Assembly: GCA_963664405.1 (NCBI GenBank)
Contig: OY761158.1
Coordinates: forward strand, 6,464,001-6,528,000
Direction of reading: 5' to 3'
Origin: Thermoanaerobaculia bacterium
GTDB lineage: Bacteria > Acidobacteriota > Thermoanaerobaculia > Multivoradales > Multivoraceae
DNA length: 64,000 nucleotides
The position numbers were made by a program, and so were the translations under genes. Shown one piece after another: positions 28,291 to 59,238 of this stretch. Numbering within the stretch: position 1 is the stretch's first letter; every line of letters starts with the position of its first letter. The notes under the pieces were generated by a model that saw only the letters and a program-made list of their open reading frames with translations, was not told the origin of the DNA and did no database searches.

Positions 28291-28365
28291 GAAAGAAGGG
28301 TGCCGTGCGCCCGTTGAGTGACGTTAAGGAAAGAACTATAAGTAGTTGAATACTAAGAGTTTACG

Positions 28366-30090: not shown

Positions 30091-30700
30091 CAAAAAGAAG
30101 GACGACCAAGAGAGAGAACTCGTCGATCCTGACGACGTACAGACGGCGGAAGAGGCTCTCGAAGCCACCCCAAAAAAACCACTCGTTCCCTCGATTCGCC
30201 GAGCTCGGCCGCCGGCGTTTCTGACGCGAATGACAAGGAAGCGCGTCGAGGCCGAGACGGAGTTTCTTGGGGCGTTAAAGGATCATGACGAAGCTGCCCT
30301 CGACTGGGCCCGCTCCCACAACGCGCTCAGCCCACAGAATCTTGGGAAGGTGAAGGCACTCGACGAAGAGCATCTCGACGAGGCGCTTGAGGAAACGAGC
30401 CAGCGCCGTGAGGTCAGAGCGGCTGAGCACCAGGTCAAGTTGGCGGAATTGGAGAGAAATCTCAGAGACGTAACCGAGCCTCCGAAACCGAAGCCTCACC
30501 GAAAAACGGAGGAAGAGAAGCTCCGAGAAGCAGTTAGGAAAGAGGGGGGGCGCGAGGATGCGCGTACAAGCATCTTGCGAGAGAAACGCATCAAGATATG
30601 CGGCGGCGAGGACCGTGATCCCGAGACCCATGAAGAAAAGCGGGCCTACGGAGCCGTCCAAGGCATCATGGATCGGATCTACAGAGAAGGACTCTCCTAG
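30074..30700 (+). CDS. hypothetical coiled-coil protein of the conjugative module
   Basis: Charged ORF between the SH3 gene and the ATPase gene. Confidence 0.6.
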   Translation: MNTMASKKKDDQERELVDPDDVQTAEEALEATPKKPLVPSIRRARPPAFLTRMTRKRVEAETEFLGALKDHDEAALDWARSHNALSPQNLGKVKALDEEHLDEALEETSQRREVRAAEHQVKLAELERNLRDVTEPPKPKPHRKTEEEKLREAVRKEGGREDARTSILREKRIKICGGEDRDPETHEEKRAYGAVQGIMDRIYREGLS

Positions 30701-30706
30701 GCAACT

Positions 30707-32890
30707 ATGAAGAAGACGATCTTGCTTGGTACTCGCTCAGACGGCTCTCGGGTCGTCTTTCCGGAGCGTCTGCGACAGCGCCACTGTCAGGTAATCGGGG
30801 CTTGAGAGTGAGCACGATAATCGATGGGAATGTTGGCCATTCTGAGCACGGTAGGTGAGGGAAGGGTGTTTGGTCCCTCAAGTAGTGTGCTCAAGACTAG
30901 GTCCGTCGGCATCATCCCCGCCGAAGGCGGGCCGTCGGGGCCTGACGCGCAGTCCATACTTGTTCTTTCGCTGATCACGCTGAACGAGGGCTGACACGCA
31001 GCGATGGGATGAACGGCACGCTATCTGATGGGCGATCGAGGCGGTTCGCCGAGCTTCCATCGCGCTTGGGCCCCTGGTTGCGCCCTCAGATACCTTGAAC
31101 GGAACACCCATTCCCACCAGACAACGTGATCGGGTTTCCTCGAATCGCCATCAAATACTGTGAACAAGACCGTCTGAGGCAAGTGGCAGCGAAACGCAGC
31201 TTCGGCTAAGTCCTTCAAAAGGCTACGCGACCATCACTTATCGTGATCGGACCGCCATCGATTATCGTGCTCACTCTCAGCTCCGGGAAAAGGTAAATCG
31301 AAACTGCTCGAGCTGATGATCCGTAGAGACATCCTCAACGGCACCGGCACGCTCTTACTTGATCCCCACGGATCGCTGTACGACGACATTGTGCGCTGGG
31401 GAGCGGCCGCCGGTCTCATCCCAGAGATGGAGAATGTTCTCCTCTTCGAGCCCAGAGACGAAGACTTTCTCTTTGGCTTCAACCCCCTCAAACTCGACGG
31501 GCTGAGCCGCTCTCAAAGAGAAGACGCTCTTGCAGCGATGGTGCGCGCAATCGGGCAGCTCTGGGGACACGTGGATTTCACTAATACCCCAACGCTCAAC
31601 CGCGGCCTTCCGCTCATTGTCTACACCTTGTGGGCCAAAGGGCTCACCCTCCGTGAGGGTTCAGAGCTCTGTCAGCGCGGTGATCTGCAGCGCTGGGCTT
31701 CAACCGACCTTCCCGACGAGAGTTACCGGCAGGACTGGGAGTATCTGCACTCGCTCACGGATAAAGAGCTCCGCGACGAAATGCGGAGCACCTACAGCCG
31801 CTTCATACCTTTCCGGCAGAACTCGCTGGTGCGCGGCATGGTGACCCAGACCGCTCACTACCTCGACTTCAAGCGCGTGATGGACGACGGTGGTGTGGTA
31901 CTCATCAACCTCGCCAAACTCTCGGAGGACAACAAACGCATCCTCGGCGTGCTCATGATGAACGACATCTTCACCCGAGGACTGCAGCGCGAAGCCGACG
32001 TCTCACCGCTTTTTAATGTCTATCTCGACGAAGCCTATTACTTTTTCAACGAAGATATAGAACGTATCCTCTTTGGTTTGAGTAAGTTCGGGGTTGCCCT
32101 AACACTGGCCCACCACACACTTTCGCAGGCCGAAAAGGCTGGCAAGTCCGTGCGCGACGCACTCCTGCAGATACCGAACAAGATCATGTTTGGAGGTCTA
32201 CTCGTCGCTGACGCTCGTGAGCTCGCTGAACAAGCGTTCGTCGGAGAGATTCAACTCGAAGAGGTCAAGCATGTGCTTGATAAGCCCACGGTCGTCGGCT
32301 ACATCACAGCTATTCTCCGTGCTCATAGCGAGACCGTTGGCAGTGGTGTTTCCTCGTCGAAAGCGACAGGAGGCTCCTCGTCGAAAGCGCCAGGGATTTC
32401 AGGAGCCACTACCTCGACGTTTGATGACGAGGGCAACGCCATGGCGACTTCCATTATGGAGGCCGTTTCAGAGCTCAGCAACGAAACCGACTCATGGTCG
32501 AGCAGCGAAACGGAAACGCCGTTCTCGTCGGAGACCGAGGGCTGGTCAGAAGCCCTACGCCCCGTTCTAAAAATTATGCCCACAGCGACCTTCAGTCTCG
32601 AAGAACAGATCTATAAGGCCGTGGCCACCATGGTGTGCCAGCCGACGCAGTACGCGATCGCAAAACTCAGCGAGAAGCCAAGCGCACACGTTCGGGTGCC
32701 GAATGTGCGGGAGCTCCCGACGACCGAGGAGTTCGTCGGCGAATGCAAGCAAGACAACTTCGAGCGTTCATACTTCACGTCACCGCTTGCACAAGCCGAG
32801 CTCGAGGAAACAGAGCGCCGAGAGAAGCTCCTAAAGGGAGCCACGGAAGCCCTCATCCCCGAAGAGCCAACCAGCTATCGAACATACTAG
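30707..32890 (+). pseudogene. second VirD4/VirB4-like ATPase split by MITE copy 3 inside Walker A
   Basis: MKKTILLG...HCQVIGA|PGKGKSK restored by removing the MITE and one GCT; DPHG and YLDEAY motifs downstream. Confidence 0.85.
30803..31279. mobile_element. MITE copy 3 (477 bp, uninterrupted)
   Basis: 25-bp TIR, 3-bp TSD GCT, near-identical to copy 2. Confidence 0.92.
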
Positions 32891-34974: not shown

Positions 34975-34978
34975 GGGC

Positions 34979-45138: not shown

Positions 45139-45471
45139 GCCGCTCTCGAGGGGTACCTACGGCCTGCACCAGGCAGAGATCGGGCCTCTACGAGCCTCTC
45201 CGCGCGGCCGTCGCTCCGGAATCGGCTGCGGAATCTGACCGCCTGCGGAAAACGGCAGACCGTTTCCACGCAGGCCTTGGAAAACCGGCAGACCGGTTTC
45301 CCACAGCTACCGCACCCGCGACGACGACGATCTAGTACTGAAGCACTGAAGAAGGGAGAAAGACAGGAAATCCCGTACACTCAAACTTGCTGAGAGTGGC
45401 TCACTTTCAAAACGGTGAACGGCTCACTTTTCAAACGTTGCCACCAGACTACCCTTTTTAGCCACCCATCT

Positions 45472-46104
45472 ATGCCCTCATCATCCACCAAACGCGTCGC
45501 GATCTACGCCAGGGTCTCGACCATCGACAAGAACCAAGATCCGGAGACACAGCTTCGAGTGCTTCGAGATCTCGTACACCACCACGACGGCTGGAGTGTT
45601 GCCGACGAGTTTGTCGACCATGCCAGTGGTGGGACGACGGATCGCGAGCAGTACCAGGAACTTCTCGACAGCGTGCGCAAGCGCCAGGTCGACGTTGTTC
45701 TCGTCTACCGCTACAACCGCTTTGCTCGATCGACCCGGGAGCTCATCAACGCACTCGAGGAGTTTCGCGCCCTCGATGTCGACTTCATCTCCTACTCCGA
45801 GAACATCGACACCACGACACCCCAGGGAAGATTTTTCTTCACAGTGATCGCTGGTTTTGCGGAGCTCGAACGCGAGCAGATCTCAGAGAACGTGCGTGTC
45901 GGTATGGCCAGAGCACGAGCGCAAGGCAAACAGATTTCCCGACCTCGGATCCCGGAAGCCAAGCAGAAGCAGCTCCGCGATCTCGCTGCATCCGGCAAGT
46001 CGAAACGCTCGATCGCTCGGGAGCTCGGCATCAATCGCCAGACCGTGGCGAACTATCTAGCGGAAAAAGCCCAAGAATCACCTGCTCCAAAAGGGGGTCC
46101 CTAA
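45472..46104 (+). CDS. small serine recombinase (resolvase/invertase) with C-terminal HTH
   Basis: YARVST catalytic motif, RFARS, AELERE, HTH SIARELGINRQTV. Confidence 0.92.
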   Translation: MPSSSTKRVAIYARVSTIDKNQDPETQLRVLRDLVHHHDGWSVADEFVDHASGGTTDREQYQELLDSVRKRQVDVVLVYRYNRFARSTRELINALEEFRALDVDFISYSENIDTTTPQGRFFFTVIAGFAELEREQISENVRVGMARARAQGKQISRPRIPEAKQKQLRDLAASGKSKRSIARELGINRQTVANYLAEKAQESPAPKGGP

Positions 46105-46186: not shown

Positions 46187-46290
46187 CTCAGCGGCCCGCC
46201 ATCCACCACGACAGGGCGAGATCAACGCCTCTCCGCCCGCTTTTATTCAGATCGGGCTATACGTGTCGTAGTGCGCCAGATTTCGCGACA
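46187..46290. repeat. cassette junction site 1 (degenerate first box + 50 bp + full box)
   Basis: ..CGCC..CACGACA, then GCTATACG TGTCGTAGTG CGCC AGA TTTCGCGACA. Confidence 0.75.
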
Positions 46291-46293
46291 CGC

Positions 46294-46335
46294 TCAACCA
46301 GTCGGCGCCAGCCGCTCAAGCTCCTCGAACCAGTG
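46294..46335 (-). pseudogene. C-terminal remnant of a kinase paralog
   Basis: HWFEELERLAPTG* matches the ends WFEELERLVPTD* and WVEELERLVPTE* of the neighbouring kinases. Confidence 0.75.
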
Positions 46336-46346
46336 GAGGGCGGCGT

Positions 46347-47798
46347 TCACCGAACACCCAGCACCGCGCGACCGGGAGCCACACCCTCGACCAGCTGGCC
46401 GTCTCTGAGTACTGCAGTCCCTCCGACGAGCACGTGGATCATCCCCTGGGACGGAGTATCTCCTTTGGTGAACGTGGACCGGTCGAGGATGGTGTCGGGA
46501 TCGAAGATCGCGAGGTCCGCATCGGCGCCGACCTGCAATCGGCCCTTCTTCTTCATCGCCGGCGCAGCGCCTGCGAGCCGTTCGGCGGGCAGCAGAGTCA
46601 TTTTCGCGAGCGCATCCATCAAGCTCAGCGCGTTGCGTTCCCGCACGTAGTGTCCCAACACCCGCGAAAAGGTGCCCGCGCCTCGTGGGTGTGCGGGACC
46701 GTAAAGATAGGGAATCCCGTCGCTCGCGACCATCACGTCCGTCTGGGCGGTGATCCATTCGTTGGTCTCTTCGTTGCGTCCGTGAATGATGACCCAGCCC
46801 CCTTGTTGTCGATACTTGGTGAAAGTCGCGGTCGTGAGTCTTTCGCCAGTCGGGGGCCACTGAAGTTGCTGGTAGTCGTCGTCGGTCAAGTCCTGCCACG
46901 AATCGAACCACGCGGATTGGATCAACGTCGAGCCGGCGGTGTACGGATAGGCTTCCGTCGTGACGTCGAGCCCGCGCTCCTGCGCGCCTCGAATCATCCC
47001 CAACGTGACGCGCGCCAACTCGTCGGAGCTGCTGTTCATGTGAACGATGTGGGCGGAGACGCCGGTCGACGCGGCGTTCGAAAGGACTTCCTGAAACGCA
47101 CCGAGCGTGCCGCCGGAGTTCTCGCCGCGGACATGGATGTAGATCGGCACGCTACGGGAAGCGGCGAGATCGAACAGCTGCAGAATCTCCACCCGAGAAG
47201 CGCCGGGGGTGTACGTCAGGCCGAACCCGATTCCGAGAGCGCCTTCGTCCAGCCCCTGTTCGAGCATCGAGCTCAGCTCTGAAAGTTCGTCTTCGGTCGC
47301 GAGTTTGTAAGCGTGCTGGCCCTTGTTGAGCTCGGCCTGCTCGTCTGGCGGAAGCGTCGGAAGATGTTTCAACGCGACGCCGTCCATGAGCTTGGCTCGC
47401 GCAGGCCAGTGCCCGACCGTTGCCCCGTAGTGGATCAGAGCGCCTTCTCGTGACGTGAGCCACTCACCGACGGGGTAGACACCTACTTCCATCTCGAGCG
47501 CGGTCGTGACGCCGTCGGCGGCTTGCAAGCGGTTGCTCACCGGATCCTGTCCATGCGCGTGAAGGTCGATGAAGCCGGGTGCGACGACGAGTCCATCCGC
47601 CTCGATGGTCGCACGGCCTTCGAGCGGTGACTCGCTGATGGCCGTGATCCGACCGTCGGAAATCCCGACGTGCCGCACCGCGTCGAGGCCGGTCTCGGGA
47701 TCCATCACCGACCCGTTTTCGATGACGAGATCGAAATCTTGGGCCGGCGCCAGCGACGCGAACGCTAGTAGTATGAGAAATGGTTTCATGACGCGCAC
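46347..47798 (-). CDS. amidohydrolase (D-aminoacylase-like), secreted
   Basis: Signal peptide, PGFIDLHAH, HPRGAGTF, KGRLQVGADADL. Confidence 0.88.
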   Translation of the reverse strand: MRVMKPFLILLAFASLAPAQDFDLVIENGSVMDPETGLDAVRHVGISDGRITAISESPLEGRATIEADGLVVAPGFIDLHAHGQDPVSNRLQAADGVTTALEMEVGVYPVGEWLTSREGALIHYGATVGHWPARAKLMDGVALKHLPTLPPDEQAELNKGQHAYKLATEDELSELSSMLEQGLDEGALGIGFGLTYTPGASRVEILQLFDLAASRSVPIYIHVRGENSGGTLGAFQEVLSNAASTGVSAHIVHMNSSSDELARVTLGMIRGAQERGLDVTTEAYPYTAGSTLIQSAWFDSWQDLTDDDYQQLQWPPTGERLTTATFTKYRQQGGWVIIHGRNEETNEWITAQTDVMVASDGIPYLYGPAHPRGAGTFSRVLGHYVRERNALSLMDALAKMTLLPAERLAGAAPAMKKKGRLQVGADADLAIFDPDTILDRSTFTKGDTPSQGMIHVLVGGTAVLRDGQLVEGVAPGRAVLGVR

Positions 47799-47827
47799 AC
47801 GATTATTCCATCAGGCCCCGTAGTACA

Positions 47828-47870
47828 GGATCTCGTAGTGACGCAGGCGCGTGCCTGCTTCTAGTGACAT
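47828..47870 (-). pseudogene. N-terminal remnant of a kinase paralog
   Basis: MSLEAGTRLRHYEI vs [14 protein letters not shown]; ATG is 60 bp from the junction box, as in intact units. Confidence 0.75.
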
Positions 47871-47930
47871 CGGTGGGCGGATCTTATCGGACGTGCGAAG
47901 CAGTCAGCGGATCAGAGAGGTGATCCCCCC

Positions 47931-48023
47931 TGTCGCAAAGCACCGAATTTCACGACAGCCCCTTCTCTCAGAGGGTCATCTGCTTTCGGCTATACCTGTC
48001 GCAGAGCGCCCAAAAGTGCGACA
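47931..48023. repeat. cassette junction site 2 (two 27-bp boxes, 39-bp spacer)
   Basis: TGTCGCAAAG CACC GAA TTTCACGACA ... GCTATACC TGTCGCAGAG CGCC CAA AAGTGCGACA. Confidence 0.85.
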
Positions 48024-48027
48024 CGCG

Positions 48028-50702
48028 TCACTCGGTAGGTACGAGGCGTTCCAGCTCTTCGACCCAGCTCTCGACTATCACGACCCCTCCGTTCGACGAG
48101 TCCCCCCCCTGTCTAGCCATGACGAATCGTTGCCCATCAAGCGAGACGTCGTAGTTCGGGTTCCCGTTGGGATCTCTTGCATAGTTCCCCTCAAACAGGA
48201 TCTTCGGTCTCTGAGGCGAGAGTGGGCCAGAGGTCTGAACGCTCACCGACATCATGCGCAGGCCGTCGCGATAGAAGAGCTCGCGCCCGTCTCGGGACCA
48301 CAACGGCTCGCGTCCCCCTTCACTCGAGACCTTTACGGCGCCGCGGGGACCTGGGAAAGGAGCAACGAAGACCTCATCCGGCCCTTCTTCGTCGGAAACA
48401 TAGGCGAGCCAACGACCGTTTGGCGAGAGCACGGGCGCTCTTTCGTCATTCGGCGTAGACAGCCATGGCGACCTCTCACCTTCATGCAGTATCCAGATGT
48501 CACGCTGTGTGGACGGCGGGATCTCGTAGTAGACGAGGGTCTGCCCGTCTTGCGACCAGTTTCCTGGGGCTTGGATGATCTGGCCCTCAAGCAATTGGAG
48601 AGGCTCTGTGCTTCGGTCGGCGGCGACGACATGAAGATTGCGCCAGCCGCCGACTCCCCGTGTCTGAAACGTGATGCTCTCGCCGTCTGCAGTCCAAATG
48701 GGCCACGAGGCACCAAAATCGGTAAGGCGCGAGAAGATGTCTCGTTGCAGGTCGTAGAGCCAGATGTCCGGGGTGCCTCGAGTTACTCCGAGGGCGAGAC
48801 TCATCCCGTCTGGCGAAAGGCGGGGCCAGCTTGCAGCGCCGTCCGACGTCGCCAGGAGTTCTTCGTCTCCATCTCGATCGACCCAGACCAGGGTGTCGCT
48901 CACAATCTGGCCCAGCTCGTACGCGAGCGTTCCGTTCGAGGAGACCGAGATGCCGGCTCTCGTGTCGACGGCCCGCCTACCGTCCGTAGAGCGCAACGAG
49001 CGCAACGAGTGGATCACAGGGGCCGGTTCTCCAACGATCTGGACATTCTCTAGATCGAAGGGAGCTGCCCAAATGGCATCCCCACGAAGGAAGACAAGGT
49101 GCCCCGGTGGGACGAATCGCGGATCGGTTGCGTCCTCGATAAGGAGTCGCCGATTCTTCCCGGTGGCGACATCGGCGACCTCAACGTTGTAGTCCCCGTC
49201 GTCGCCCGTGACTAAGAGAAAGAATTCAGCACCCGCAAGAAGTTGCGGTCGCCAGGGAACGAAACCGCTGTCGAAGGTAAGTATATTCTCAGGCTCGCCT
49301 CCCGAGCCTGACACTTTGAGGATCCCCTCGCCGTCCATGCCGAAGACGATGAGGTCTCCCTCCCAACTCGCGCCTCTCACAATGTTGTGGACCTCGCACA
49401 GAGATACAGGAGTCCCTCCTGCAAGCGGGATCTTCCGCATGTGTGCCCCATCCAGGAAACCGACCCAAGCTCCATCTGGTGAGAAGAATGGCGAGGATGC
49501 GCCTTCAGTTCCCAGAATCGGAGAAGCCTCGAGGGTGTCGAGACGGCGTCGATAGAGACGGGCGACACCCTCTTCCTCGCCAGTGAAGACGAGAGTTCTG
49601 CCGTCCGGTGAGAGGGCGATCAAGGATGCAGAAGAGCCCGAGACCTGGCTCAAGGGAAGGTTCAGGAGGTAGCGAGAGGTGGGGAGCGGTTGGGAGAGAG
49701 GCCGCGGCCGATTCCAAACTACGATACCTGTTGCTGCGGACCCCAGTATCAAGGCGCAGATCGCCGTGGCAAAGGAACCGCGCGAGAAGGACCTTCGATC
49801 GGAGGGGTCGGGAACCACCGTCGTTGTCGCGTCCAAGCCCGAGAGAGACTCTTCGATCTCGATCCGGGCCATGGCGATGTCGGGAATGCGCTGCTGCTTT
49901 TTTTTCTCGAGAGAACGCCGTACCAGCCGCCGAATCGATGAAGGCAGTTCGACCGGCAGCGCCTCAAGGTCCGGCTGGTCCCGGAGCACTGCTGCCAGAG
50001 TGTTGGGCGCATCTTCACCTTGAAAGGCGCGCTGCCCGGTCAGTGCCTCGTAGAGGCAAGCACCGAAGGCCCAAACGTCGGTCCTCTTGTCCACCGCCTT
50101 TCCAGACGCCTGTTCCGGGCTCATGTAGGCTGCGGTGCCGAGGATCTGTCCGCGCTGCGTCGCCGCAAGGGTGAGAGTGGGTGAGTTGGAGAGGCCCGGA
50201 TCGACCATGTCAGCCTCTTTGACCATGGCCTTCGCCAGGCCGAAGTCGAGGATCTTGACGTTCGACTCATCCGTGCCGAGCTTGATGTTGGCAGGCTTCA
50301 GATCGCGGTGGATGATGCTCTTCTCATTCGCCGCCTCGAGCCCCTCTGCGATCTGCAGGAACAGCGGCAGCGCCTCATCGACAGGGATAGCTCCTCTCTT
50401 GATGCGGTCAGCCAACGTCTCGCCCTCGACCAACTCCATCACGAGGAAGTTGGTATCGCCTTCCCGTTCGAAGGCGTGGAGGCTGGCGATGTTCTTGTGG
50501 TTGAGCGAGGCCAGGACCCGCGCCTCGCGCTCGAATCGAGCTAGACGCTCCGGGTCAGAGGCGACCTCGTCGAGAAGTGCTTGATCGCCACCTCGCGGCC
50601 CAACTTGGTGTCGCGAGCTCGATACACCTCACCCATGCCCCCTGCACCGAGGGAAGAGACCACTTCGTAGTGGCCGAGGCGAGTGCCAGCTTCTAGAGCC
50701 AT
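48028..50702 (-). pseudogene. Ser/Thr kinase + TM + TolB/PD40 beta-propeller, 1-bp frameshift near 50579
   Basis: [22 protein letters not shown] in one frame and HRDLKPAN/DFG in another; AAG-CA-CTT lacks one base relative to KLLL in the paralogs. Confidence 0.85.
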
Positions 50703-50763
50703 TGACTTGGCGACATCATACCCGTCGCCCGGGGGATTCAGCGGCTCAGAGCTCGATTTGCGA

Positions 50764-50855
50764 TGTCGCAAAGCACCCGGAACTACGACAGTTCGCCGAT
50801 TTCGGCGTTATCGAGATTCAGCTATACGTGTCGTCTCTCGCCAGATTTCACGACA
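50764..50855. repeat. cassette junction site 3 (two boxes, 38-bp spacer)
   Basis: TGTCGCAAAG CACC CGG AACTACGACA ... GCTATACG TGTCGTCTCT CGCC AGA TTTCACGACA. Confidence 0.85.
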
Positions 50856-50997
50856 CTGACGATGTTGTCCATTGCACCTTCCACTACAAAAGGTGCCAAC
50901 TCGTTTGAGAACCGTGACTATCAGTCCGTTAAGGACGACGGCGATCGCGACGCCCGCAAGACTTGGGAGATCCGGGCGCGGAACCGGTGCTTCGGCT

Positions 50998-52401
50998 TCA
51001 GCTGCCGTACGTCGCGGCATCGAGCTCGAAAGCCAGGCCTCGCAATGACTCGATACAAGCCCGGCGCTTAGCGTTTTCTGCCGCTACTTGGCGGAAGAGC
51101 CGGAGAGAGGCTCGATCGTCGAGCGCGGACGTATCGCGGTCCAGATGTTCAGACAAAAGCTCGCAGCGCAGAGCTTTCACTGTGGGGCCGTGCCAGAAAC
51201 TGGCGTTGAGCTCGACGTCACCGTAGAACGAACGATTGGCGATGTTGGTCGAACCGATCGTTGCCCACACGTCGTCAATGAGAGCGATCTTGGCGTGCAC
51301 GTGGATGTCCTGGTAGCCGCGGTCGGGCCGGTTGGACGCGATACCCGCGAGGGTAAAACGGGGCGATGAGCCCAGGGTCGCGAGCGCCTCGAAGAACGGC
51401 CGCGACTTGGGATCCTGCCGGGTTCTCGACATGTCGGCCATCTTCACGGGCACCAGACAGACGACGTCGATCCCGCGATCACAGGCCACCTGCAGGCGTT
51501 CGATTACCTGCGGCGCTCCGATAGCCTGATCTTCGATGTAGATTGTGGAGCGTGCTGCGTCGATGGCGCTCAGGTACTGCTCGAGAGTGCTGTACTCGCC
51601 CGCACCGATCGCGAAACACTCGCCGCCGGGCGTTGCCGTGGAGTCACTGTAGTGACCCGCACGCACAGTGCGCTGAATCTGTACCGTCGCCTCGCCGACC
51701 TCGGAACTCAGCGCTTGGGGATGGGCCAGCTTGGCGTGACCTACTGCCGATGGCCAGACGCCGTCGTCGAGAGTTCTCTCGCTGGCTTCGTTCCACCGCT
51801 GCACGAAGTTGTGGTGAACATCCGTGGCCGATGGTCCGACGATCTCGACGTACACGTCATGGGTACTGCCGACCACCTCCCGGGGGCTGTGACCCGGCGA
51901 GACCACCGAGTTGGGGTGCAGATTGATGCCACCAACAAAGGCCACTTCGTGCTCTTTCCCGGCGTCGATCATCCAGCTCTTCTGGTGTTGGCAGTACCGT
52001 TTCTGGGCTCTGTCCCATACCGCCTGGAATCGCGAGCCACGCTCCGCCAGCCAGGCGCGCTGCTCCGAGGTGCCAGGGAAGTGCGACTCCGGGTGCGTTG
52101 TATCCGGATCGGAGCGCCAGAAGATGGCTCGTACGTCGAGGCCGCGGTCAACGGCCGCGTCCAGCACGTCGAAGAAAGTGCCGCGACCGTCTGGCATCTG
52201 CATGTTGCGTTTGATGAAGCTAACGGTCACCCAAACACTGTGACGCGCCGCCTCAGCGGCCTCACAGATACGGCGGAAGGCGGGCTCGCCGTCGACCATG
52301 GGATGTACGGCGTTACCGACGCGCGCCGGGTACGAGCCGGAGGTCGAGAAGGGAATGTGCTGGCCGTGGCGCTGCATGACGAGCGGCTTGACTACAAGCA
52401 A
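50998..52401 (-). CDS. phospholipase D family protein
   Basis: Two HKD motifs, HQKSWMID and HAKIALID. Confidence 0.9.
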   Translation of the reverse strand: MLVVKPLVMQRHGQHIPFSTSGSYPARVGNAVHPMVDGEPAFRRICEAAEAARHSVWVTVSFIKRNMQMPDGRGTFFDVLDAAVDRGLDVRAIFWRSDPDTTHPESHFPGTSEQRAWLAERGSRFQAVWDRAQKRYCQHQKSWMIDAGKEHEVAFVGGINLHPNSVVSPGHSPREVVGSTHDVYVEIVGPSATDVHHNFVQRWNEASERTLDDGVWPSAVGHAKLAHPQALSSEVGEATVQIQRTVRAGHYSDSTATPGGECFAIGAGEYSTLEQYLSAIDAARSTIYIEDQAIGAPQVIERLQVACDRGIDVVCLVPVKMADMSRTRQDPKSRPFFEALATLGSSPRFTLAGIASNRPDRGYQDIHVHAKIALIDDVWATIGSTNIANRSFYGDVELNASFWHGPTVKALRCELLSEHLDRDTSALDDRASLRLFRQVAAENAKRRACIESLRGLAFELDAATYGS

Positions 52402-52618
52402 CTCTCACTATATTACGCTCTCTGACAGCCAGCCCTCGTTCGCGATAGGAGGCTTAGAAGCCGCTAGACCAGTGTCACCTTCCGCCTGAAAGTGTGCAGT
52501 GGCCAGCTCTCCCTATTGAGGCAGCGGCGCAACCGCCGAAGGTTGTCAACAGAAGGAAAGTGCAAGACATGCACCTTCCACAGCGAACTGTGCAAGCAGA
52601 CTTCTGGCTTGCGGGTGT

Positions 52619-52711
52619 CGTCGCGATGCACCCGGAACTGCGACACCGCACCGATTTCGGGGTCTATCGACTTTCAGCTATGCGTGTCGTGGTCCGCCCC
52701 AAACTACGACA
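52619..52711. repeat. cassette junction site 4 (two boxes, 39-bp spacer)
   Basis: CGTCGCGATG CACC CGG AACTGCGACA ... GCTATGCG TGTCGTGGTC CGCC CCA AACTACGACA. Confidence 0.85.
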
Positions 52712-52724
52712 GACCTGGGCGGAT

Positions 52725-53486
52725 TCAAATCCCGTTGGGGACGCCACTCCCTAGCGCGATGCGACCAGACGCTGCGCTGCGGTCTTCCCTCGAACCGGAG
52801 TCATCGGTGCGGGAGTACACGATGGCGTTGCCGTCTTTACCCACCATTTCGATGACCCCGACACGGCGCAGGCAGTAAGTCATCTGCTGCGCTAGACGGC
52901 GCCGCCGTCGGAGCGCCTCGGCGAGGTCGACAGTGGTGAACTCCCGCGGCACCTCGCTTGGCAGAAAGGAGGCCAAGGCCTCCGGTGAGTCGATGATGAG
53001 CCGATCGACGACCTCGAGCAGCCGACGCTCCTCGACCACCCAGCCCCTGCGTCGCCATCCTTTGTCGCCGTCGAAGCGGCGCACTTCTTCCTCGCGGATG
53101 AGCAGCACTTCGAGGGTCAAGTCGGCATGAGCGATGAGCCCCGGGAAGCTCACCAGCTCCCCGAAGAGGTCGACTGCAGCGCCTCGCTTGGGTGATTTCC
53201 GGCGGGAGGTCACTTCCCCCGACTCGTCGAGCTTCAGGATCCACTTCTCCACAGCGATCGGATGCACCACGCGTACGGCATGCCCATCGAGAAGCTTAGC
53301 CAGCTTGCGCTTCATCGATGAGAACCCGCGGGTCTGGATCTCGATGAGCAGACCGTTTCGGACGAGGTCGATCACGAACCCGTCGACGGGCTCTTCGACG
53401 CGATCATCGTCTTCGGCATACCAGCGTTTGAGTGCCGCATGCAGCGGCTTCTCGCCAAGCGTTCCCACATGCGTTCGAGCGGTCAT
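52725..53486 (-). CDS. hypothetical protein, PD-(D/E)xK nuclease-like with C-terminal wHTH
   Basis: EKPLHAALK...IDLVRNGLLIEIQT motif; C-terminal FTTVDLAE helix-turn-helix. Confidence 0.65.
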   Translation of the reverse strand: MTARTHVGTLGEKPLHAALKRWYAEDDDRVEEPVDGFVIDLVRNGLLIEIQTRGFSSMKRKLAKLLDGHAVRVVHPIAVEKWILKLDESGEVTSRRKSPKRGAAVDLFGELVSFPGLIAHADLTLEVLLIREEEVRRFDGDKGWRRRGWVVEERRLLEVVDRLIIDSPEALASFLPSEVPREFTTVDLAEALRRRRRLAQQMTYCLRRVGVIEMVGKDGNAIVYSRTDDSGSREDRSAASGRIALGSGVPNGI

Positions 53487-53517
53487 CTGCGGCGACGCTA
53501 TCAAGGCGCCGCTCGGC

Positions 53518-53544
53518 TGTCGTCTTCCGCCGAAAAAGACGACA
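53518..53544. repeat. cassette junction site 5 (single box)
   Basis: TGTCGTCTTC CGCC GAA AAAGACGACA, 3 bp from the kinase stop codon. Confidence 0.8.
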
Positions 53545-53547
53545 CGA

Positions 53548-56226
53548 TCAGTCGGTAGGGACCAACCGCTCCAGCTCCTCGAACCAGTTCTGGACCAGGA
53601 CGACGTGATTGGGTGCTCCCCCCTCGGTCGTCTCCACCGGTTTGACCATCAGGAACTTCTGAGCGTCAGGGGCGACGTCGTACATGCGGCCGATGGTGAC
53701 GGAATAGCTCCCGGTGAAGAGCACCTCCGGGCTTCCAGCCTCGAACGCGGGCTCGGTCCTCACTGGTACTGCCATCAGGCTGTCTCCGGATCGATAGAAG
53801 AGTTCGCTGCCGTCCGGTGACCACAACGGTTCGGTGCCGCCTCTCGCCGAGATCGGGATACGACCGCTGTCAACGTCAGGGAACGGCCTCACGTAGATCC
53901 GGTCCTCGCCCGATTCGTCCGACTGGTAGGTCAACCACCGACCATCGGGTGAGATCTCTCCATTCCGCTCACCGAACTCCGAGGCCAGAAGCGGTTCTGG
54001 CGGTTCCTCGCCTTCCAGCGACAGCACCCCCAGATCGCTCGCCGTCGTGCCGACGCGATAGATGAGAAGCTTGCCGTCGGGGGAGATCGACGATGGAAAT
54101 AGATTCTCTGCGGTCTCCGTGAGCTGCATCACCTCGCCCGTACCATCAGCCGCCCTCTGGTAGACGTCGAAGGTCCCGCCACGAACCGAGCTGTACACCA
54201 CTTCGCGGCTGTCAGGAGTCCAGATCGAATGCATGTCCATTCCCGGATCGCGGGTCAACCGGTCCAGGGTCTCCCGACCGAGATCCCAGATCCACACATC
54301 CTGTTCTTCATCAAGAGAAGAGACTGCTACCCGCCGTCCGTCCGGAGAAATGCGCGGATGGGCATAGGACCGAAATGGGGCCAAGAGGGCCTCCTCCCCT
54401 CCATCCCGTCCCACCCAGACCAGGGCCGTCTGCACCCCTCCCCCTGCGCCACCCGTGACGTACACCAAGGATCCGTCCTGCGAGAAGTCGAAGTTCACAG
54501 CACCTGTGGGCATCGTGCCGACGCCTTTCAAGACGGGCACCGGATTTCCCCGGACCTCAAGACTTCCTGCATCGAAGGCCACCGCACGTAACGTGCCGCT
54601 CACCCCATAGACCAGGTGCCCAGTGGGCACGTACCGGGCGCCGGCCCCTTCAGAGAACAGGACCTTCCGCTCCCCGGTAGTGAGAGATTGGGCCACGATC
54701 TGCGTTTGCTCGACGTTCGCGCTCGTGAAGACCGTGAAAAGGACGGCCTCGCCGCCAGGCAGCATCTCGGGAAAACGATAGGCAGTCTCACCCCTCTCGC
54801 GATCTGGCGCTACCAGCAGCTCCAGCTCGCCGCCTCCCCCCGACACCCGATAGAGACCCCCGGTTGCGGAGCCGAAGACAATGGTGTCGTCCGCCCCCCA
54901 GTTTGCACCGGTGAGAAGGTCGGGTAGCTCGCACAACGTCACGGTTGGTCCGCCGAGAATGGAGACCTTCTTGAGAGTCCCGCCGGATCGGAAGCCGACC
55001 CAGGCCCCGTCGGGCGACAGGAAGGGAGCAGTCGCGCCCTCCGTACCTGCGAGCTGGGACCCGACGAGGCGATCCACTCGGCGAACATAGAGAGAGCCTT
55101 CGCTGAGGTAGACGACCACCCGACCGTCGGGTGTCATCGCCAGATCGCGACCGGGGAAGGTACCCCCCACCGGCACACTGGGAGCGGCGCTCAGCACCGA
55201 GCGAACCACAGGGCGCTCGGGTGGCGCGGGTGCGGGCTTCAGGGTCCACACGGTGATCCCCGCGATTACCGCACCGGCAGCCAGCATAGCGAGGCCCGAA
55301 GGTACGGGGCTGCGCTTCTCCGCCACGACCGCGCCGGGCGTGGGCTCACGGTCCTGCGGAGCCACGATGGCTTCTTCGATCTCGATGCGGGCGTCACCGA
55401 TATCGCGCAGCCGCTGTCTTGGGTCCTTGCTGAGACACCGCCGCAACAGTTCTCGGAGCTTTCGGGGCGTAGCGTCGGGGAGCCGTTCCCAATATGGGTC
55501 GGACTTGAGCACCGACGCCAGGGTGATGGAGGCGTCCTCGCCCTCGAAGACTCGCTTGCCGCTCAGCGCCTCGAACAGACAGACCCCGAAAGCCCATACA
55601 TCGGCGCGCTTATCGACGGTCTTTCCTCGCGCCTGCTCGGGAGCCATGTAGGCGGCAGTGCCGAGAATCTGGCCGCGTTGGGTCGCGGCGAGTGTGAGCG
55701 TCGGAGACTCAGACAAGCCGCCGTCTCCGCTCCCACTAGCTTCCACAGCCATCGCCTTGGCCAGACCGAAATCGAGGATCTTGACCGCACCGTCTTCCGA
55801 CACTTTGATGTTCGCAGGCTTCAAATCCCGGTGGATGACCCCTTTCTCGTGGGCTGCCTCCAGGCCCTCCGCGATTTGCAAGAAAACGGGTAATGCCTCA
55901 TCGACAGGGATTGCACCTCTCTTGATGCGATCAGCCAGGGTCTCGCCTTCCACCAGCTCCATGACCAGGAAGCTGGTGTCGCCTTCCCGCTCGAAGGCAT
56001 GGAGGCTGGCGATGTTCTTGTGGTTGAGCGACGCCAGCACCCGCGCCTCACGCTCGAAGCGCGCCAGCCGCTCGGCGTTCTGCGATACCTCCTCAAGGAG
56101 CAGCTTGATCGCCACTTCCCGCCCGAGCTTGGTGTCGCGGGCTCGGTAGACCTCTCCCATGCCCCCCGCGCCTAGCGAGGAGACCACTTCGTAGTGGCTA
56201 AGGCGAGTGCCAGCTTCTAGAGCCAT
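53548..56226 (-). CDS. Ser/Thr protein kinase + TM + TolB/PD40 beta-propeller
   Basis: GAGGMG, VAIK, HRDLKPAN, DFG, YMAPE, multiple SPDG repeats. Confidence 0.93.
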   Translation of the reverse strand: MALEAGTRLSHYEVVSSLGAGGMGEVYRARDTKLGREVAIKLLLEEVSQNAERLARFEREARVLASLNHKNIASLHAFEREGDTSFLVMELVEGETLADRIKRGAIPVDEALPVFLQIAEGLEAAHEKGVIHRDLKPANIKVSEDGAVKILDFGLAKAMAVEASGSGDGGLSESPTLTLAATQRGQILGTAAYMAPEQARGKTVDKRADVWAFGVCLFEALSGKRVFEGEDASITLASVLKSDPYWERLPDATPRKLRELLRRCLSKDPRQRLRDIGDARIEIEEAIVAPQDREPTPGAVVAEKRSPVPSGLAMLAAGAVIAGITVWTLKPAPAPPERPVVRSVLSAAPSVPVGGTFPGRDLAMTPDGRVVVYLSEGSLYVRRVDRLVGSQLAGTEGATAPFLSPDGAWVGFRSGGTLKKVSILGGPTVTLCELPDLLTGANWGADDTIVFGSATGGLYRVSGGGGELELLVAPDRERGETAYRFPEMLPGGEAVLFTVFTSANVEQTQIVAQSLTTGERKVLFSEGAGARYVPTGHLVYGVSGTLRAVAFDAGSLEVRGNPVPVLKGVGTMPTGAVNFDFSQDGSLVYVTGGAGGGVQTALVWVGRDGGEEALLAPFRSYAHPRISPDGRRVAVSSLDEEQDVWIWDLGRETLDRLTRDPGMDMHSIWTPDSREVVYSSVRGGTFDVYQRAADGTGEVMQLTETAENLFPSSISPDGKLLIYRVGTTASDLGVLSLEGEEPPEPLLASEFGERNGEISPDGRWLTYQSDESGEDRIYVRPFPDVDSGRIPISARGGTEPLWSPDGSELFYRSGDSLMAVPVRTEPAFEAGSPEVLFTGSYSVTIGRMYDVAPDAQKFLMVKPVETTEGGAPNHVVLVQNWFEELERLVPTD

Positions 56227-56285
56227 GACTTGGCGACATCTTACCGGTCGCCCGTGGTATCAGCGGCTCGGAGCTCGATCTGTGC

Positions 56286-56378
56286 TGTCGCAGAGCACCG
56301 AATTTCACGACAACACCTCTGCTCGAAGGCTTATCTGCTTCCGGCTATGCGTGTCGCAGACCGCCACAATTCGCGACA
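56286..56378. repeat. cassette junction site 6 (two boxes, 39-bp spacer)
   Basis: TGTCGCAGAG CACC GAA TTTCACGACA ... GCTATGCG TGTCGCAGAC CGCC ACA ATTCGCGACA. Confidence 0.85.
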
Positions 56379-56388
56379 CGCCTTCGCC

Positions 56389-59058
56389 TCACGAGCCCCC
56401 CTCGGAGAACATCTCGAGCACCTTGGCCCGCCAGTTCTGGACCAAGACTAGACGCTCCTCCTCGTCCTCTTCTACCGCCTGGATCATGAGGAAGCGACCG
56501 TCGGGGTGGACGGCGTAGTTCTGGTAGCGTCCGGGCACGCGCAGGTAATCATCCTCGAAGAGTGGCTCGGGACGCCGGGTGACGAAGCGCTCGCCGTCGA
56601 TCTCGATCGGGAGCGTCATCATGTGGGTCGGGCTGCGGTAGAGGATCTCGCTGCCTTCGGGGGAGAAGCTCGCCTCCTGGCCGCCGTCGAAGGTGAGCTG
56701 GCGCGGCTCGCCGGGACCGGGGAAGGGCCGAATCCAGACGTTCTCCTCGCTCTGAACGACCACCGAGTAAGCGATCCAACGTCCGGTGGGGTGGAAGCGG
56801 GCGGCGCGGACCCGGTTCCCCTCGAGGAGGGTCTCGGACTCCCCGCTCTCCCGGTCGAAGACCCAGAGTCCGGGGAAATCGAAGTTCGTGTAGAGCATGT
56901 AGCGCCCGTTCGGGGAGAAGTCGAGAACGGACTGGGCGTGCTCCGACGGCACGAGACGCTCCGCCGGGGCACTGCGATCGGCGGGCTGGATGTAGAGCTG
57001 ATAGCGCCCCTCGAAGCGATCCGACATGAAGACGATCTCCTGGCCGTCGGGCGGCACCCACCTCGCGCCAAGGTTGCGATTCCCCTCCTGGGTCGGGCGG
57101 GTCCAGGAGCCGGTCTCGAGGTCGAGCATCCACTGCTCGTAGTTCCCCTTGGCGTCGCGGGCGCTGACCGAGATCCGGAGCCAGTCCAGGGAGTGTCGCG
57201 GCGACAGGAAAGGCTTGCGCTCCGGCGCCACCTCCTCGATGTCCAGGCCGTCCCGACTCACCCAAACCAGCCGGGACACGCTCCGACTCCCGAGAACGTA
57301 GAGCAGGTCGCCCGAATCTGCGAGCGCGAAGCGGCCGACATCGACGTTAGAGCGGAGGCGCGGGGCCACCCCGGTCTCGACCTGACGCGCTGGGCCGAGG
57401 AGGTCGGCGGTCTCGGGATCGATCGGCGCCGCCCACAGTCCACCCCCGCGATAGAAGACCAAAACCCCCGGATCGAGATAGAGCGGCTGCGCCCCAGGGA
57501 GGAGAACCCGTTCCTGGCCAGTCTCGAGGTCCACCGCCCGCACCTCGCTCCAGAAGCCGTCCTGACGCTCGGATCTCAAGTGGGCCAGGGCGATCCGTTC
57601 ACCAGGCAGAAGCGCTCCCCCGTAGCCATGCCCCACCTGCTCGGGGACGCCCCCACCCGCCGGAATCCGCCATAGCTCGCGAGACGTGCCGCTGCCTGTC
57701 TCAGGCGTGTAGTAGAGGAAGCCATCGCGCCCCCAGACACCGGCGCTGCGGATCCCGTCCACCAGAACGCTGGCGCCTCCACCCTCCACGGGAAGCGTCT
57801 TCAGACTGCCCCCCGCGTCCCTGAAGGCAAGCTGCTGGCCGTCGGGCGAGAAGGTCATGGAGCGGGTGGCACCGTCGCTACCGGAGATGCGCTCGGCGAC
57901 CAGGGAGTCGAGAGAGCGTCGGTAGAGGCTGGTCTCGGCTCCCTCGCGACGACTGAAGACCACTAGCCGACCGTCCGGAGAGAGCACGACGGGCTGATCC
58001 GGAGCTGCCTCGAGATCGAGAGCCGTGACCGTCCAGGTGTCATCCGAGGCAGCGTCGCTCGCCGCATCGCCTCCATCTCGGAACAGGCCGAAGCCCAAGA
58101 CAAGACCGATCACCACAGCGAGGGCGAGGGCGAGGACAACCGACACTCGCCGCCGGGCTGGTGCCGCCTCGCCACCGGCTGGCGCGTCGATGTCCGGCTG
58201 CTCGAGCACTCCTCGGATCTCGATCCGAACGTCGGCGATGTCGTGAAGGCGCTCCCGCGGGTCCTTCGTCAAACACCGTCGGAGCAGTCTCCTGATCGCT
58301 CTCGGCGTCGCCGGGGGGAGCTTGCCCCAGTCGATCTCCGCTCTGAGCACCGCTGCCAGCGTGTCGGCGGCATCGTCGCCGTGGAACGCCCTCGATCCCG
58401 TCAGCGCCTCGTAGAGACACACGCCGAAGGCCCAGACGTCGGCCCTTCTATCGACCTCTTTCCCCTTGGCTTGTTCGGGCGACATGTAGGCCGCCGTGCC
58501 GAGGATCTGGCCCCGGAGCGTGGCCGCCTGGGTCAGCGTGGGCGACTCCGAAGGGTCGCTCTCCGGGCCCGTTGCCGGAGCCATTGCCTTGGCCAGACCG
58601 AAGTCAAGAATCTTGACGTTGCCGTCGTCGGTGACCTTGATGTTCGCGGGTTTGAGATCCCGGTGGATCACTCCCTTCTCGTGCGCTGCCTCAAGCCCCT
58701 CGGCGATTTGGAGAAACAGAGGGATCGCCTCCTCGACGGGAATCGGGCCGTGAGCGATCCGATCGGCCAGAGTCTCGCCCTCGACCAGCTCCATGACCAG
58801 GAAGCCCGTGTCACCTTCCCGCTCGAAGGCGTGGAGGCTGGCGATGTTCTTGTGGTTGAGCGAGGCGAGAACTCGCGCCTCGCGCTCGAAGCGAGCTAGA
58901 CGCTCAGGATCTGTGGAGACCTCATCAAGCAGCAGTTTGACCGCTACCTCGCGACCGAGCTTCGTGTCCTTGGCTCGATACACTTCTCCCATGCCTCCTG
59001 CACCTAGCGAGGAGACCACTTCGTAGTGGCCGAGGCGAGTGCCAGCTTCTAGAGCCAT
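56389..59058 (-). CDS. Ser/Thr protein kinase + TM + TolB/PD40 beta-propeller
   Basis: Same kinase motifs with a divergent propeller. Confidence 0.93.
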   Translation of the reverse strand: MALEAGTRLGHYEVVSSLGAGGMGEVYRAKDTKLGREVAVKLLLDEVSTDPERLARFEREARVLASLNHKNIASLHAFEREGDTGFLVMELVEGETLADRIAHGPIPVEEAIPLFLQIAEGLEAAHEKGVIHRDLKPANIKVTDDGNVKILDFGLAKAMAPATGPESDPSESPTLTQAATLRGQILGTAAYMSPEQAKGKEVDRRADVWAFGVCLYEALTGSRAFHGDDAADTLAAVLRAEIDWGKLPPATPRAIRRLLRRCLTKDPRERLHDIADVRIEIRGVLEQPDIDAPAGGEAAPARRRVSVVLALALAVVIGLVLGFGLFRDGGDAASDAASDDTWTVTALDLEAAPDQPVVLSPDGRLVVFSRREGAETSLYRRSLDSLVAERISGSDGATRSMTFSPDGQQLAFRDAGGSLKTLPVEGGGASVLVDGIRSAGVWGRDGFLYYTPETGSGTSRELWRIPAGGGVPEQVGHGYGGALLPGERIALAHLRSERQDGFWSEVRAVDLETGQERVLLPGAQPLYLDPGVLVFYRGGGLWAAPIDPETADLLGPARQVETGVAPRLRSNVDVGRFALADSGDLLYVLGSRSVSRLVWVSRDGLDIEEVAPERKPFLSPRHSLDWLRISVSARDAKGNYEQWMLDLETGSWTRPTQEGNRNLGARWVPPDGQEIVFMSDRFEGRYQLYIQPADRSAPAERLVPSEHAQSVLDFSPNGRYMLYTNFDFPGLWVFDRESGESETLLEGNRVRAARFHPTGRWIAYSVVVQSEENVWIRPFPGPGEPRQLTFDGGQEASFSPEGSEILYRSPTHMMTLPIEIDGERFVTRRPEPLFEDDYLRVPGRYQNYAVHPDGRFLMIQAVEEDEEERLVLVQNWRAKVLEMFSEGGS

Positions 59059-59118
59059 TGACTTGGCGACATCATACCCGTCGCCCGGGGGATCAGCGGC
59101 TCAGAGCTCGATTTGCGA

Positions 59119-59238
59119 TGTCGCACCTCACCCCGAAAGACGACACGCAGGCCCGCAAGTCCCCGTATTTGCTGGATTCTCTTGGTGCCCCAAGGGCGAA
59201 AGGCGACAGTTTGTCGCGATATGTGCGTGGGTGCGACA
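59119..59238. repeat. array-head site (box, spacer, half box, 3 bp, box)
   Basis: TGTCGCACCT CACC CCG AAAGACGACA ... GGCGACA GTT TGTCGCGATATGTGCGTGGGTGCGACA. Confidence 0.75.

Follow-up and report, generated by a model that had tools for sequence, protein, structure and literature searches.

Integrons are the textbook platform on which bacteria stockpile and reshuffle gene cassettes, with the crossover placed in the outer R box of the site. To our knowledge the only other well-known cassette platform is that of the dif modules, which borrow the Xer system and whose pdif sites alternate in orientation. We describe here, in the 6.78-Mb single-contig genome of a Thermoanaerobaculia bacterium, a set of gene arrays whose units are bounded by 27-bp boxes of the form TGTCG-N17-CGACA. 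One array, at positions 46187-59238 of a 64,000-nt stretch of contig OY761158.1 (positions 6,464,001 to 6,528,000; hereafter the window), had been described in an original prediction as a system of cassette capture and shuffling. We conclude that the boxes are probably double-stranded site-specific recombination sites and that the DNA between two like boxes would form a mobile cassette. In a literature search covering titles and abstract openings we found no description of such sites, and no paper combining TGTCGC, GCGACA and recombinase.

These arrays resemble integrons in being long and co-oriented, with mostly single-gene, functionally unrelated units, in having one short conserved site per gene and a unit boundary inside the short conserved core of that site, and in having sites conserved at their outer ends and variable inside, arrays with a head of their own, and an element of the IS110/IS1111 type that targets the sites. 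One of the features by which integrons are recognized, co-oriented cassettes of gene plus site bounded within a conserved core, is present. Unlike in integrons, the boxes fall into two classes, with the gene-strand core GGCG (A boxes) or GGTG (B boxes), there are nine clusters on the chromosome with no adjacent integrase, the units are large and seemingly have their own promoters, and the crossover lies at the centre of the 27-bp site. An integron integrase, IntI, is a tyrosine recombinase with an extra domain peculiar to it and is encoded next to the array; a search for one gave 26 matches to TIGR02249 in the genome, the best scoring 122 bits against a cut-off of 265, and the best genes match the model in two pieces that leave model positions 181-235 unmatched. 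An attC site (R''/L''...L'/R') carries RYYYAAC and GTTRRRY and folds, single-stranded, into a hairpin. The consensus of 52 unique junctions contains no RYYYAAC or GTTRRRY, as the original prediction had noted for the boxes of the window. The analogy that it drew with attC hairpins is rejected: eight folds (four window junctions, both strands) gave z-scores of -0.84 to +0.85 relative to shuffles, an alifold consensus of the 52 junctions held only trivial end pairs of 5-6 bp, and neither the A and B boxes of a junction nor the opposite ends of a unit showed covariation.

Two further systems invite comparison. Dif modules likewise place genes between ~28-bp sites of arm-centre-arm geometry (a XerC arm, a 6-bp centre and a XerD arm, related to chromosomal dif), depend for their shuffling between replicons on a recombinase encoded outside the module, and have dedicated insertion sequences (ISs) that target the sites. 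The present boxes differ from dif-module sites in being all direct repeats within a cluster, in being chromosomal and in occurring in a different phylum. The junction consensus lacks an inner palindrome of the ATAA-N6-TTAT type, its inner arms being variable, when set against a general dif consensus that may not be the host's own, and a dif-like regular expression run over the genome gave a single match, probably by chance. The ends of the boxes also seem to resemble the half-site TGTCYNNTA of gamma-delta/Tn3 res (resolvase site I). Shared with res sites are a length of ~27-28 bp, conserved outer TGTC...GACA, A/T-rich inner arms, central exchange, several protein-binding subsites within ~100 bp, and a resolvase gene 160 bp from the terminal box of the window. 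The boxes differ from res sites in their odd length and in occurring by the dozen on one replicon as gene arrays. A res-type site typically has its small serine recombinase encoded beside it and co-occurring with it.

In the window the pattern TGTCG-N17-CGACA occurs 12 times against 0.11 expected, a count reached by none of 100 shuffles. Ten of the 12 have, on the minus (gene) strand, the refined form TGTCG-N8-GGYG-N5-CGACA, and a box at 52619, which ends in CGACG and so carries one mismatch, adds an eleventh. The box coordinates originally given (46264, 47931, 47997, 50764, 50829, 52685, 53518, 56286, 56352 and 59119, with 52619 as the imperfect one) are therefore confirmed. When the spacing was varied from 5 to 34 across the genome, N17 gave 118 matches and every other spacing 6-42; the reversed pattern gave none in the genome scan. 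The refined form has 88 perfect sites genome-wide, against 0-5 matches per genome among 40 relatives from its own family or order, most of these matches random-looking. Among 101 boxes the only invariant parts are the outer pentamers TGTCG and CGACA and the 4-nt core GGCG or GGTG; position 6 is C or T in 100 and position 22 A or G in 99. The inner arms do not covary, 1.62 of 5 positions being complementary compared with 1.66 when arm pairings are shuffled; the 10-bp inverted arms and 7-bp core first proposed for the boxes do not stand. The proposed placement relative to genes does: the A boxes of the window lie 10, 3, 13, 4 and 3 bp past stop codons, with a phospholipase D (PLD) gene as the exception at 142 bp, and the B boxes lie 60, 59 and 61 bp upstream of kinase ATGs and 60 bp before an N-terminal kinase relic. 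The spacer motif GCTATRCS likewise holds, as GnATAGC on the gene strand, at 90% or more in the 52 unique junctions.

That units have moved is indicated by cutting the array DNA at the box cores and comparing all of the resulting units with one another. Twins are found in different arrays (numbered A1, A2 and so on, with genome coordinates): 31969..28161 of array A1 and 755749..759557 of array A3 are 99.8% identical over 3.8 kb, 767727..768557 of array A3 and 4990631..4989797 of array A7 are 99.0% identical, and the units beginning at 4991476 in array A7 and at 600055 in array A2 are 99.5% identical, the neighbouring A7 unit having its twin in a different array. The neighbours of twin units are unmatched or far more diverged. 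Base-by-base inspection of nine boundaries placed the start or stop of identity inside the core, or no more than 3 nt from it, in seven (one of them a B box), and at these seven the far-side arm and the DNA beyond are unrelated; the remaining two are one boundary without homology in common at that end and one ambiguous case.

The arms of the boxes segregate with their flanks. In an all-pairs count that required one flank to be at least 93% identical and the other at most 55%, 10 of the 11 box pairs sharing only the upstream side have the same left arm and a different right arm. Of the 47 pairs that share only the downstream side, 30 have the same right arm and a different left arm, 15 differ in both arms and 2 agree in both. 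An arm travelling with the wrong flank was seen nowhere in this count. Position 13 follows the upstream side (24310 compared with 4989797) and position 18 the downstream side (28161 compared with 759557), which confines the exchange to GGYG at positions 14-17. The boxes at 41243 and 6523119 have their upstream region and left arm in common and differ in right arm and first unit, and one module running from A core to B core (window spacer 56313..56351) recurs beside different neighbours. All counted pairs join boxes of the same class, which fits a need for core identity and is partly built into the architecture. A box at 5468225-5468251 (locus L021) combines a typical B left arm and upstream spacer with a core reading GGCG and another right arm; it arose either by B x A recombination or by a T-to-C change at position 16.

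The arrays could in principle also have become mosaic through gene conversion or ordinary homologous recombination among paralogous arrays, the boxes being simply where similarity happens to start or end. The conserved 5' leaders and C-terminal coding sequence of the kinase units could support such exchange, and some homology boundaries lie at or beyond the box edges. Yet the clean boundaries show 27-40% identity in the 55-nt flanks beyond the core, that is, no similarity; what the crossovers have in common is limited to a 5-bp end and a core of 4-6 bp, less than RecA-type exchange requires; and seven boundaries fall in the same 4 bp. We regard this explanation as highly improbable. Hybrid sites are the rule in these arrays, in place of the fixed synteny without hybrid sites that the original prediction had named as the contrary outcome, and its inference of cassette shuffling is supported by the non-syntenic twins of 99-99.8% identity, the core switches, the segregation of arms, the environmental contigs described below, the co-orientation of the boxes and the diversity of the cargo.

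If the boxes are recombination sites, a trans-acting recombinase would read the invariant TGTCG and CGACA ends, 9-13 bp to each side of the centre, and exchange strands inside the invariant GGYG core, positions 14-17 of the box. If two boxes of one class in direct orientation (A x A or B x B) recombined, the DNA between them would leave as a circle, a presumed intermediate, with one hybrid box, and in the reverse reaction the circle would insert at any like box. Every box in an array would then be a hybrid, with its left arm from the upstream unit and its right arm from the downstream unit. The leader at the head of an array, running from a P box through one more half-site and a 66-nt spacer to the first B box, may act as the counterpart of attI.

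The genome-wide layout of the boxes is highly ordered. Nine clusters, together ~169 kb or about 2.5% of the chromosome, hold 82 of the 88 perfect boxes and comprise seven multi-unit arrays and two head-only stubs. The boxes of each cluster lie on a single strand (13/13, 10/10, 23/23, 12/12, 11/11, 14/14 and 11/11, and likewise in the two stubs). Read along the gene strand, an array opens with the P leader box, which has the TGTCG-N17-CGACA frame without the GGYG core, followed after 3 nt by a TGTCGCC half-site, a spacer and the first B box. Downstream of this lie ~60 nt with a -10-like hexamer 12-14 nt before the ATG, then the gene, its stop codon and an A box. The A box is succeeded either by a 39-nt spacer (GnATAGC ... 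GATAr ... CCCC) with a B box and another kinase, or immediately by a further gene; the A-spacer-B junction often forms a 93-bp composite. The head of P box, 66-nt spacer and B box opens the arrays at genome positions 41336, 3944777, 5004409 and 6523212. It is also present at the head-only stubs 873849 and 4411856, and array A8 has a degenerate copy upstream of its first B box. Two further sites, 617787 and 747662, retain a P box, with the B box after it interrupted or missing. The 66-nt leader spacer is identical between arrays A1 and A9, and the array head also occurs in metagenome contig L039. Cumulative GC skew peaks near 6.76 Mb and has its minimum near 2.74 Mb; five of the nine clusters are no more than ~0.9 Mb away from the peak. 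Scans for transfer RNA (tRNA) genes, which covered the window and seven array loci, found none, a tRNA-like 3' fragment upstream of the head of array A5 was not confirmed, and Rfam gave no match at E up to 0.1 in window positions 42000-61000.

This layout bears on the possibility that the boxes are selfish or structural repeats, like repetitive extragenic palindromic (REP) sequences or miniature inverted-repeat transposable elements, or that the units are transposon-like, with half-box ends and GGYG target duplications, the IS110-family element merely landing there and no dedicated recombinase exchanging units. The box ends do form an inverted repeat, TGTCG/CGACA, units are bracketed by ...CGACA and TGTCG... 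with GGYG on both sides, and IS110-family and IS91-like elements land in or beside boxes. Against this, 82 of the 88 boxes are confined to nine one-stranded clusters and are not scattered; neighbouring units share one GGYG, not two; variation lies next to the supposed tips and invariance 6-13 bp further in, opposite to what transposon ends show; there is neither hairpin nor covariation within a box, between boxes or across a unit; and the units encode no transposase. REP/REPIN elements, which are scattered hairpin-forming palindromes outside genes that go with a RAYT transposase, were rejected in particular, the boxes being clustered, not dispersed, and having no stem beyond 5-6 bp. We judge this explanation very unlikely.

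The units themselves reach 3.8 kb. They include 32 kinase-family open reading frames (ORFs), fragments counted, and a varied remainder: PLD, amidohydrolase, S-adenosylmethionine (SAM) methyltransferase, MFS transporter, ATP-grasp, ornithine cyclodeaminase, DUF1326, DUF5916/CBM9, Na/H exchanger with TrkA domains, zincin, sulfatase, cupin, DUF3047, DUF3604 and a kinase-AAA-TPR protein. A full-length RpoD-like sigma-70 factor of 564 residues is also a box-flanked unit (genome 771143-772837; L012 11143-12837); it has two paralogs elsewhere (74% and 64% identity), one of them ~8 kb past the end of array A5. The earlier statement that the sites flank unrelated genes holds for the PLD gene and for a 259-residue protein gene of the window, as well as for many units of other arrays. 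The window's amidohydrolase, which sits in the shell of a former kinase unit, is not independent evidence of this kind.

A further alternative is that a transcription factor reading TGTCG uses the boxes as operator or activator sites, and that the arrays are mostly kinase paralogs spread by tandem or segmental duplication, with the boxes copied along. In its favour, B boxes stand 59-61 bp before kinase starts and boxes lie 39-44 nt upstream of -10-like hexamers (TAAGAT, TAGAAT, TAGACT), themselves 12-14 nt before the ATG, with further TGTCG/CGAC half-sites bracketing the hexamer; other genomes have only 2-4 boxes; and the limited repertoire of arms shared between genomes is what protein contacts would give. 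Such a model leaves unexplained the A boxes 3-13 bp past stop codons and the terminal A boxes without a related follower, the segregation of arms with opposite flanks, the non-syntenic twins of 99-99.8% identity that end in the 4-bp core, and the many unrelated gene families between boxes; nor was a canonical sigma-70 promoter found at the junctions. We consider it improbable as the whole explanation. The units seem to carry their own -10-like element and so need not be promoterless, unlike integron cassettes, most of which lack a promoter and rely on a shared one, Pc, at the head of the array, and a scan of the junctions found neither canonical sigma-70 promoters nor intrinsic terminators. 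In kinase leaders (for example window 59059-59118 and 56227-56285) inverted half-sites, GCGAC-N7-9-TGTCGC, bracket the -10-like TAAGAT or TATGAT, which suggests a TGTCG-binding protein that also covers the promoter, and messenger RNAs with very short leaders.

The array of the window, read from its upstream end, has the following parts.

59212-59238, minus strand: leader box P, core-less, followed by AAC and a TGTCGCC half-site (59202-59208); upstream end of the array
59146-59211, minus strand: leader spacer, 66 nt, from P to the first B box
59119-59145, minus strand: B box (GGTG), the first crossover site past the leader
56389-59058, minus strand: unit 1, Ser/Thr kinase with PD40 beta-propeller, 889 residues, ~92% identical to units in arrays A1, A3 and A8
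56352-56378, minus strand: A box (GGCG), 10 bp past the kinase stop
56313-56351, minus strand: A-to-B spacer, 39 nt, with the motifs GnATAGC, GATAr and CCCC
56286-56312, minus strand: B box, 59 bp before the kinase ATG
53548-56226, minus strand: unit 2, Ser/Thr kinase with PD40, 892 residues (Pkinase 2e-53, PD40 4e-23)
53518-53544, minus strand: A box, 3 bp past the kinase stop and 13 bp before the next ORF
52725-53504, minus strand: unit 3, 259-residue protein, flanked by an A box on both sides
52685-52711, minus strand: A box, 13 bp past the stop
52619-52645, minus strand: B box with one mismatch, ending CGACG
50998-52401, minus strand: unit 4, PLD-family protein, 467 residues (PLDc_2 4.6e-19)
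50829-50855, minus strand: A box, 142 bp past the PLD stop
50764-50790, minus strand: B box, 61 bp before the kinase ATG (50702)
48028-50702, minus strand: unit 5, kinase-PD40, interrupted near 50541 (ORFs of 76 and 804 residues)
47997-48023, minus strand: A box, 4 bp past the stop
47931-47957, minus strand: B box, 60 bp before the kinase N-terminal relic
46294-47870, minus strand: unit 6, amidohydrolase (46347-47798) inside a former kinase unit
46264-46290, minus strand: terminal A box of the array
45415-46104, plus strand: small serine recombinase, resolvase domain with C-terminal helix-turn-helix, 160 bp from the terminal A box
42590-42616, plus strand: box relic, TGTCGCGAAATCTG followed by TATAGAGGCGACA, without GGYG, beside an IS91-like right-end relic (~42520-42556) and beyond an IS21 element as seen from the array

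The 259-residue protein of unit 3, earlier labelled nuclease-like, had no match in Pfam, NCBIfam or PADLOC, and unit 5 (48028-50702) is probably a pseudogene. In unit 6 the amidohydrolase replaced the interior of a kinase unit, of which an N-terminal relic (19 codons beginning MSLEAGTRLRHYEIL, 47811-47870) and a C-terminal relic (13 codons closing with HWFEELERLAPTG and a stop, ending at 46294) remain between the B and A boxes. The PLD gene is also flanked by a second palindrome, GCACCTT-N9-AAGGTGC (tGGAAGGTGC; window ~50865-50895 and 52555-52579), which recurs near boxes of other arrays at genome 3979.8 kb and 5004.2 kb. On the plus strand, in the region 40542-42616, a gene of the DUF3604 family, to which units of array A5 belong, precedes the IS91-like right-end relic and the core-less box; this region may be the remnant of an array on the opposite strand. 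Between resolvase and relic lies an IS21-family element (istA, istB; window 42831-45446) with a 99.96% identical copy at genome 4569624-4572239; it is inserted between the resolvase gene and its upstream region, splitting the resolvase unit into 42703-42830 and 45447-46058.

Which enzyme would act on the boxes was considered across all of the genome's 25 tyrosine-recombinase and 12 serine-recombinase matches, four of the latter small. Tyrosine-recombinase geometry is possible for the boxes. The best single candidate, still a tentative one, is sInt, a stand-alone tyrosine recombinase of ~175 residues, consisting of the catalytic domain only, embedded in the arrays at genome 5456065-5456601. The genome has three copies or relics of it, each within an array or next to one. 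The intact copy forms a unit at the far end of array A8, with an A box on one side and a B-like box on the other; array A3 has an N-terminal relic after its last A-type box; and a C-terminal relic (52% identical) stops 194 nt short of the P box of stub A4, on its upstream side. A degraded homolog lies ~310 bp from a lone box in one relative (G008), and in viral contigs there was one weak match only. The small serine recombinase of the window (45415..46104) is a weak candidate, and a small serine recombinase is altogether an unlikely answer. Its 91% identical paralog at genome 2755053 has no box beside it; one of the four small serine recombinase genes adjoins an array, but is cut from its upstream region by the IS21 element; the other three lack a TGTC-N16-24-GACA site in the 400 bp before and the 600 bp after them; and no close homolog of the resolvase was found in G008 or in the genomes G041-G043. 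The host XerC/D we think rather improbable, and the enzyme may well be something else, an outcome to which we give a slightly better chance than to sInt. None of 20 integrase frames, nor the resolvase, had a match in 33 external loci.

The boxes are also the landing sites of mobile elements, as attC sites are for the IS1111-attC elements, the analogue of such site-targeting insertion by IS110/IS1111-type elements. An IS110-family element, whose transposase matches NCBIfam IS110 at 4.6e-34, lies directly after the core at four places, always in one orientation.

Genome 4985456-4987016 (array A7; L019 5456-7016): IS110-family element after the GGCG core of an A box
Genome 779053-780613 (array A3; L012/L013): IS110-family element after the GGCG core of an A box
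Near genome 1144.9 kb: IS110-family relic after a GGCG core
Near genome 3962.6 kb: IS110-family relic after a GGTG core

In array A7 the element is followed by the right arm that it displaced, GACTGCGACA, and by the ATAGC spacer; GACTGCGACA is located 24 nt past the end of homology with the A3 copy. A transposase 86.6% identical to the IS110-family one sits between two kinases in contig L030. Judged by these insertion points, the IS110-family element is a core-specific parasite of the boxes. A diverged second IS110-type copy in array A8 (5460111-5460710) is reversed and lies inside a B left arm. An IS91-family element of 2.6 kb, encoding a 286-residue tyrosine recombinase and a Y2 transposase, with its right end abutting TTAT/ATAA, has five full or near-full copies (L008, L009, L010).

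Genome 34789-37391: IS91-family copy
Genome 41380-43976: IS91-family copy
Genome 596927-599449: IS91-family copy
Genome 615191-617709: IS91-family copy
Genome 887165-889767: IS91-family copy

Four of the five are in or beside array junctions, two in A-B spacers by the conserved GATAA, one inside a B left arm and one 17 nt from a P box; the fifth is at a box-free place, and a partial copy abuts a lone A box. These insertions parallel those of insertion sequences that target integron attC sites (cf. PMC11187229) or the pdif sites of the dif modules of Acinetobacter plasmids (cf. PMC6449649, PMC13141974 and PMC10132070).

The A-gap-B composite is not confined to this genome. It occurs in three further genomes, two Acidobacteriota metagenome-assembled genomes (MAGs) and one Myxococcota MAG, and in 30 metagenome contigs. 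Of the 33 external loci, 16 carry 3-5 boxes, always co-oriented, with units of ~250-1000 bp or of kinase size, and one external contig opens with a P-type leader. The cargo there includes alpha/beta hydrolase, PNPOx, metallo-beta-lactamase (MBL)-fold, DsbA-like, DUF3604 and sulfatase-like proteins and kinases 25-67% identical to those of the present genome; the repertoire of arm sequences is limited and common to several genomes. In two of three pairs of environmental contigs the sequences switch at a core, at an A core in L028 and L029 (99.6%) and at a B core in L024 and L035 (94.8%). Among public sequencing runs, 20 of the 24 listed contain some of the stretch, none of them listed as an RNA run; the largest shares, 0.47-0.94 of the sampled words, come from seven runs of two studies. 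The four runs compared are Logan assembled contigs that are broken at A-B junctions and can show neither circles nor their absence, and their uncovered parts carry no weight in either direction.

Several observations weigh against reading the boxes as recombination sites. The boxes stand at a fixed distance upstream of -10-like hexamers, and a regulatory role may coexist with recombination. The counted box pairs are not independent, being drawn from paralog families, and both arms differ in 15 of the 47 downstream-only pairs. The first automatic breakpoint passes put many boundaries at box edges; they were superseded by stricter flank criteria and inspection by eye, since conserved TGTCG, GGYG, CGACA and ATAGC had extended the alignments. 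The third environmental pair, L030 and L055 (97.9%), switches just past the right arm of an A box. The three other genomes hold 2-4 genuine-looking boxes each, and box arrays would assemble poorly in MAGs. In the assembled contigs of the four runs there was no sign of a circle, a deletion junction, a newly captured gene or a difference between strains. One identical 2.7-kb contig, present in three samples, keeps the order of PLD gene, 259-residue protein gene and kinase end, and no box joint is found among the 15 of 131 contig joints listed, the joints lying inside kinase repeats. A consistently linked recombinase, for which the original prediction had proposed to look, was not found at the array heads, where none of the genome's recombinase matches is conserved. 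As for sInt, a DNA-binding domain is missing from its N terminus. Its best matches reach 32-42% identity in the three further genomes with boxes and 31-38% in 400 genomes sampled from the phylum, none of them a close homolog, and its family numbers 1629 proteins (E up to 1e-10), many 59-92% identical and spanning many phyla not known for these boxes.

With these points set against the rest, we still favour double-stranded recombination at the boxes. Comparison of sequences shows the array architecture, the segregation of arms, a crossover within positions 14-17, recent movement of units between arrays and occurrence in other organisms. As to the wider picture, we lean towards a second, independently evolved, integron-like platform made up of multiple chromosomal arrays. 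In such a platform whole genes with their promoters would be exchanged at double-stranded 27-bp sites of two orthogonal classes, with a dedicated leader and a recombinase of a type not yet tied to cassette arrays, possibly the widespread ~175-residue tyrosine recombinases consisting of a catalytic domain only. It would reshuffle a large stock of sensor kinases and accessory enzymes and would have its own specialised IS110-family parasite.

If this is true, a third system would join the integrons and the dif modules, and cassette platforms would have evolved more than once. The present one would be set apart by its different sites, by having no IntI that we could find in the genome and no single-strand hairpin, by its several arrays per chromosome and by its kinase-dominated cargo. 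It would provide a new pair of recombinase and site for genetics, with two apparently non-cross-reacting classes of site, and the boxes would be a defined natural target of an RNA-guided IS110-family element. For the organisms themselves, it would explain the diversification of large kinase families in these sediment bacteria.

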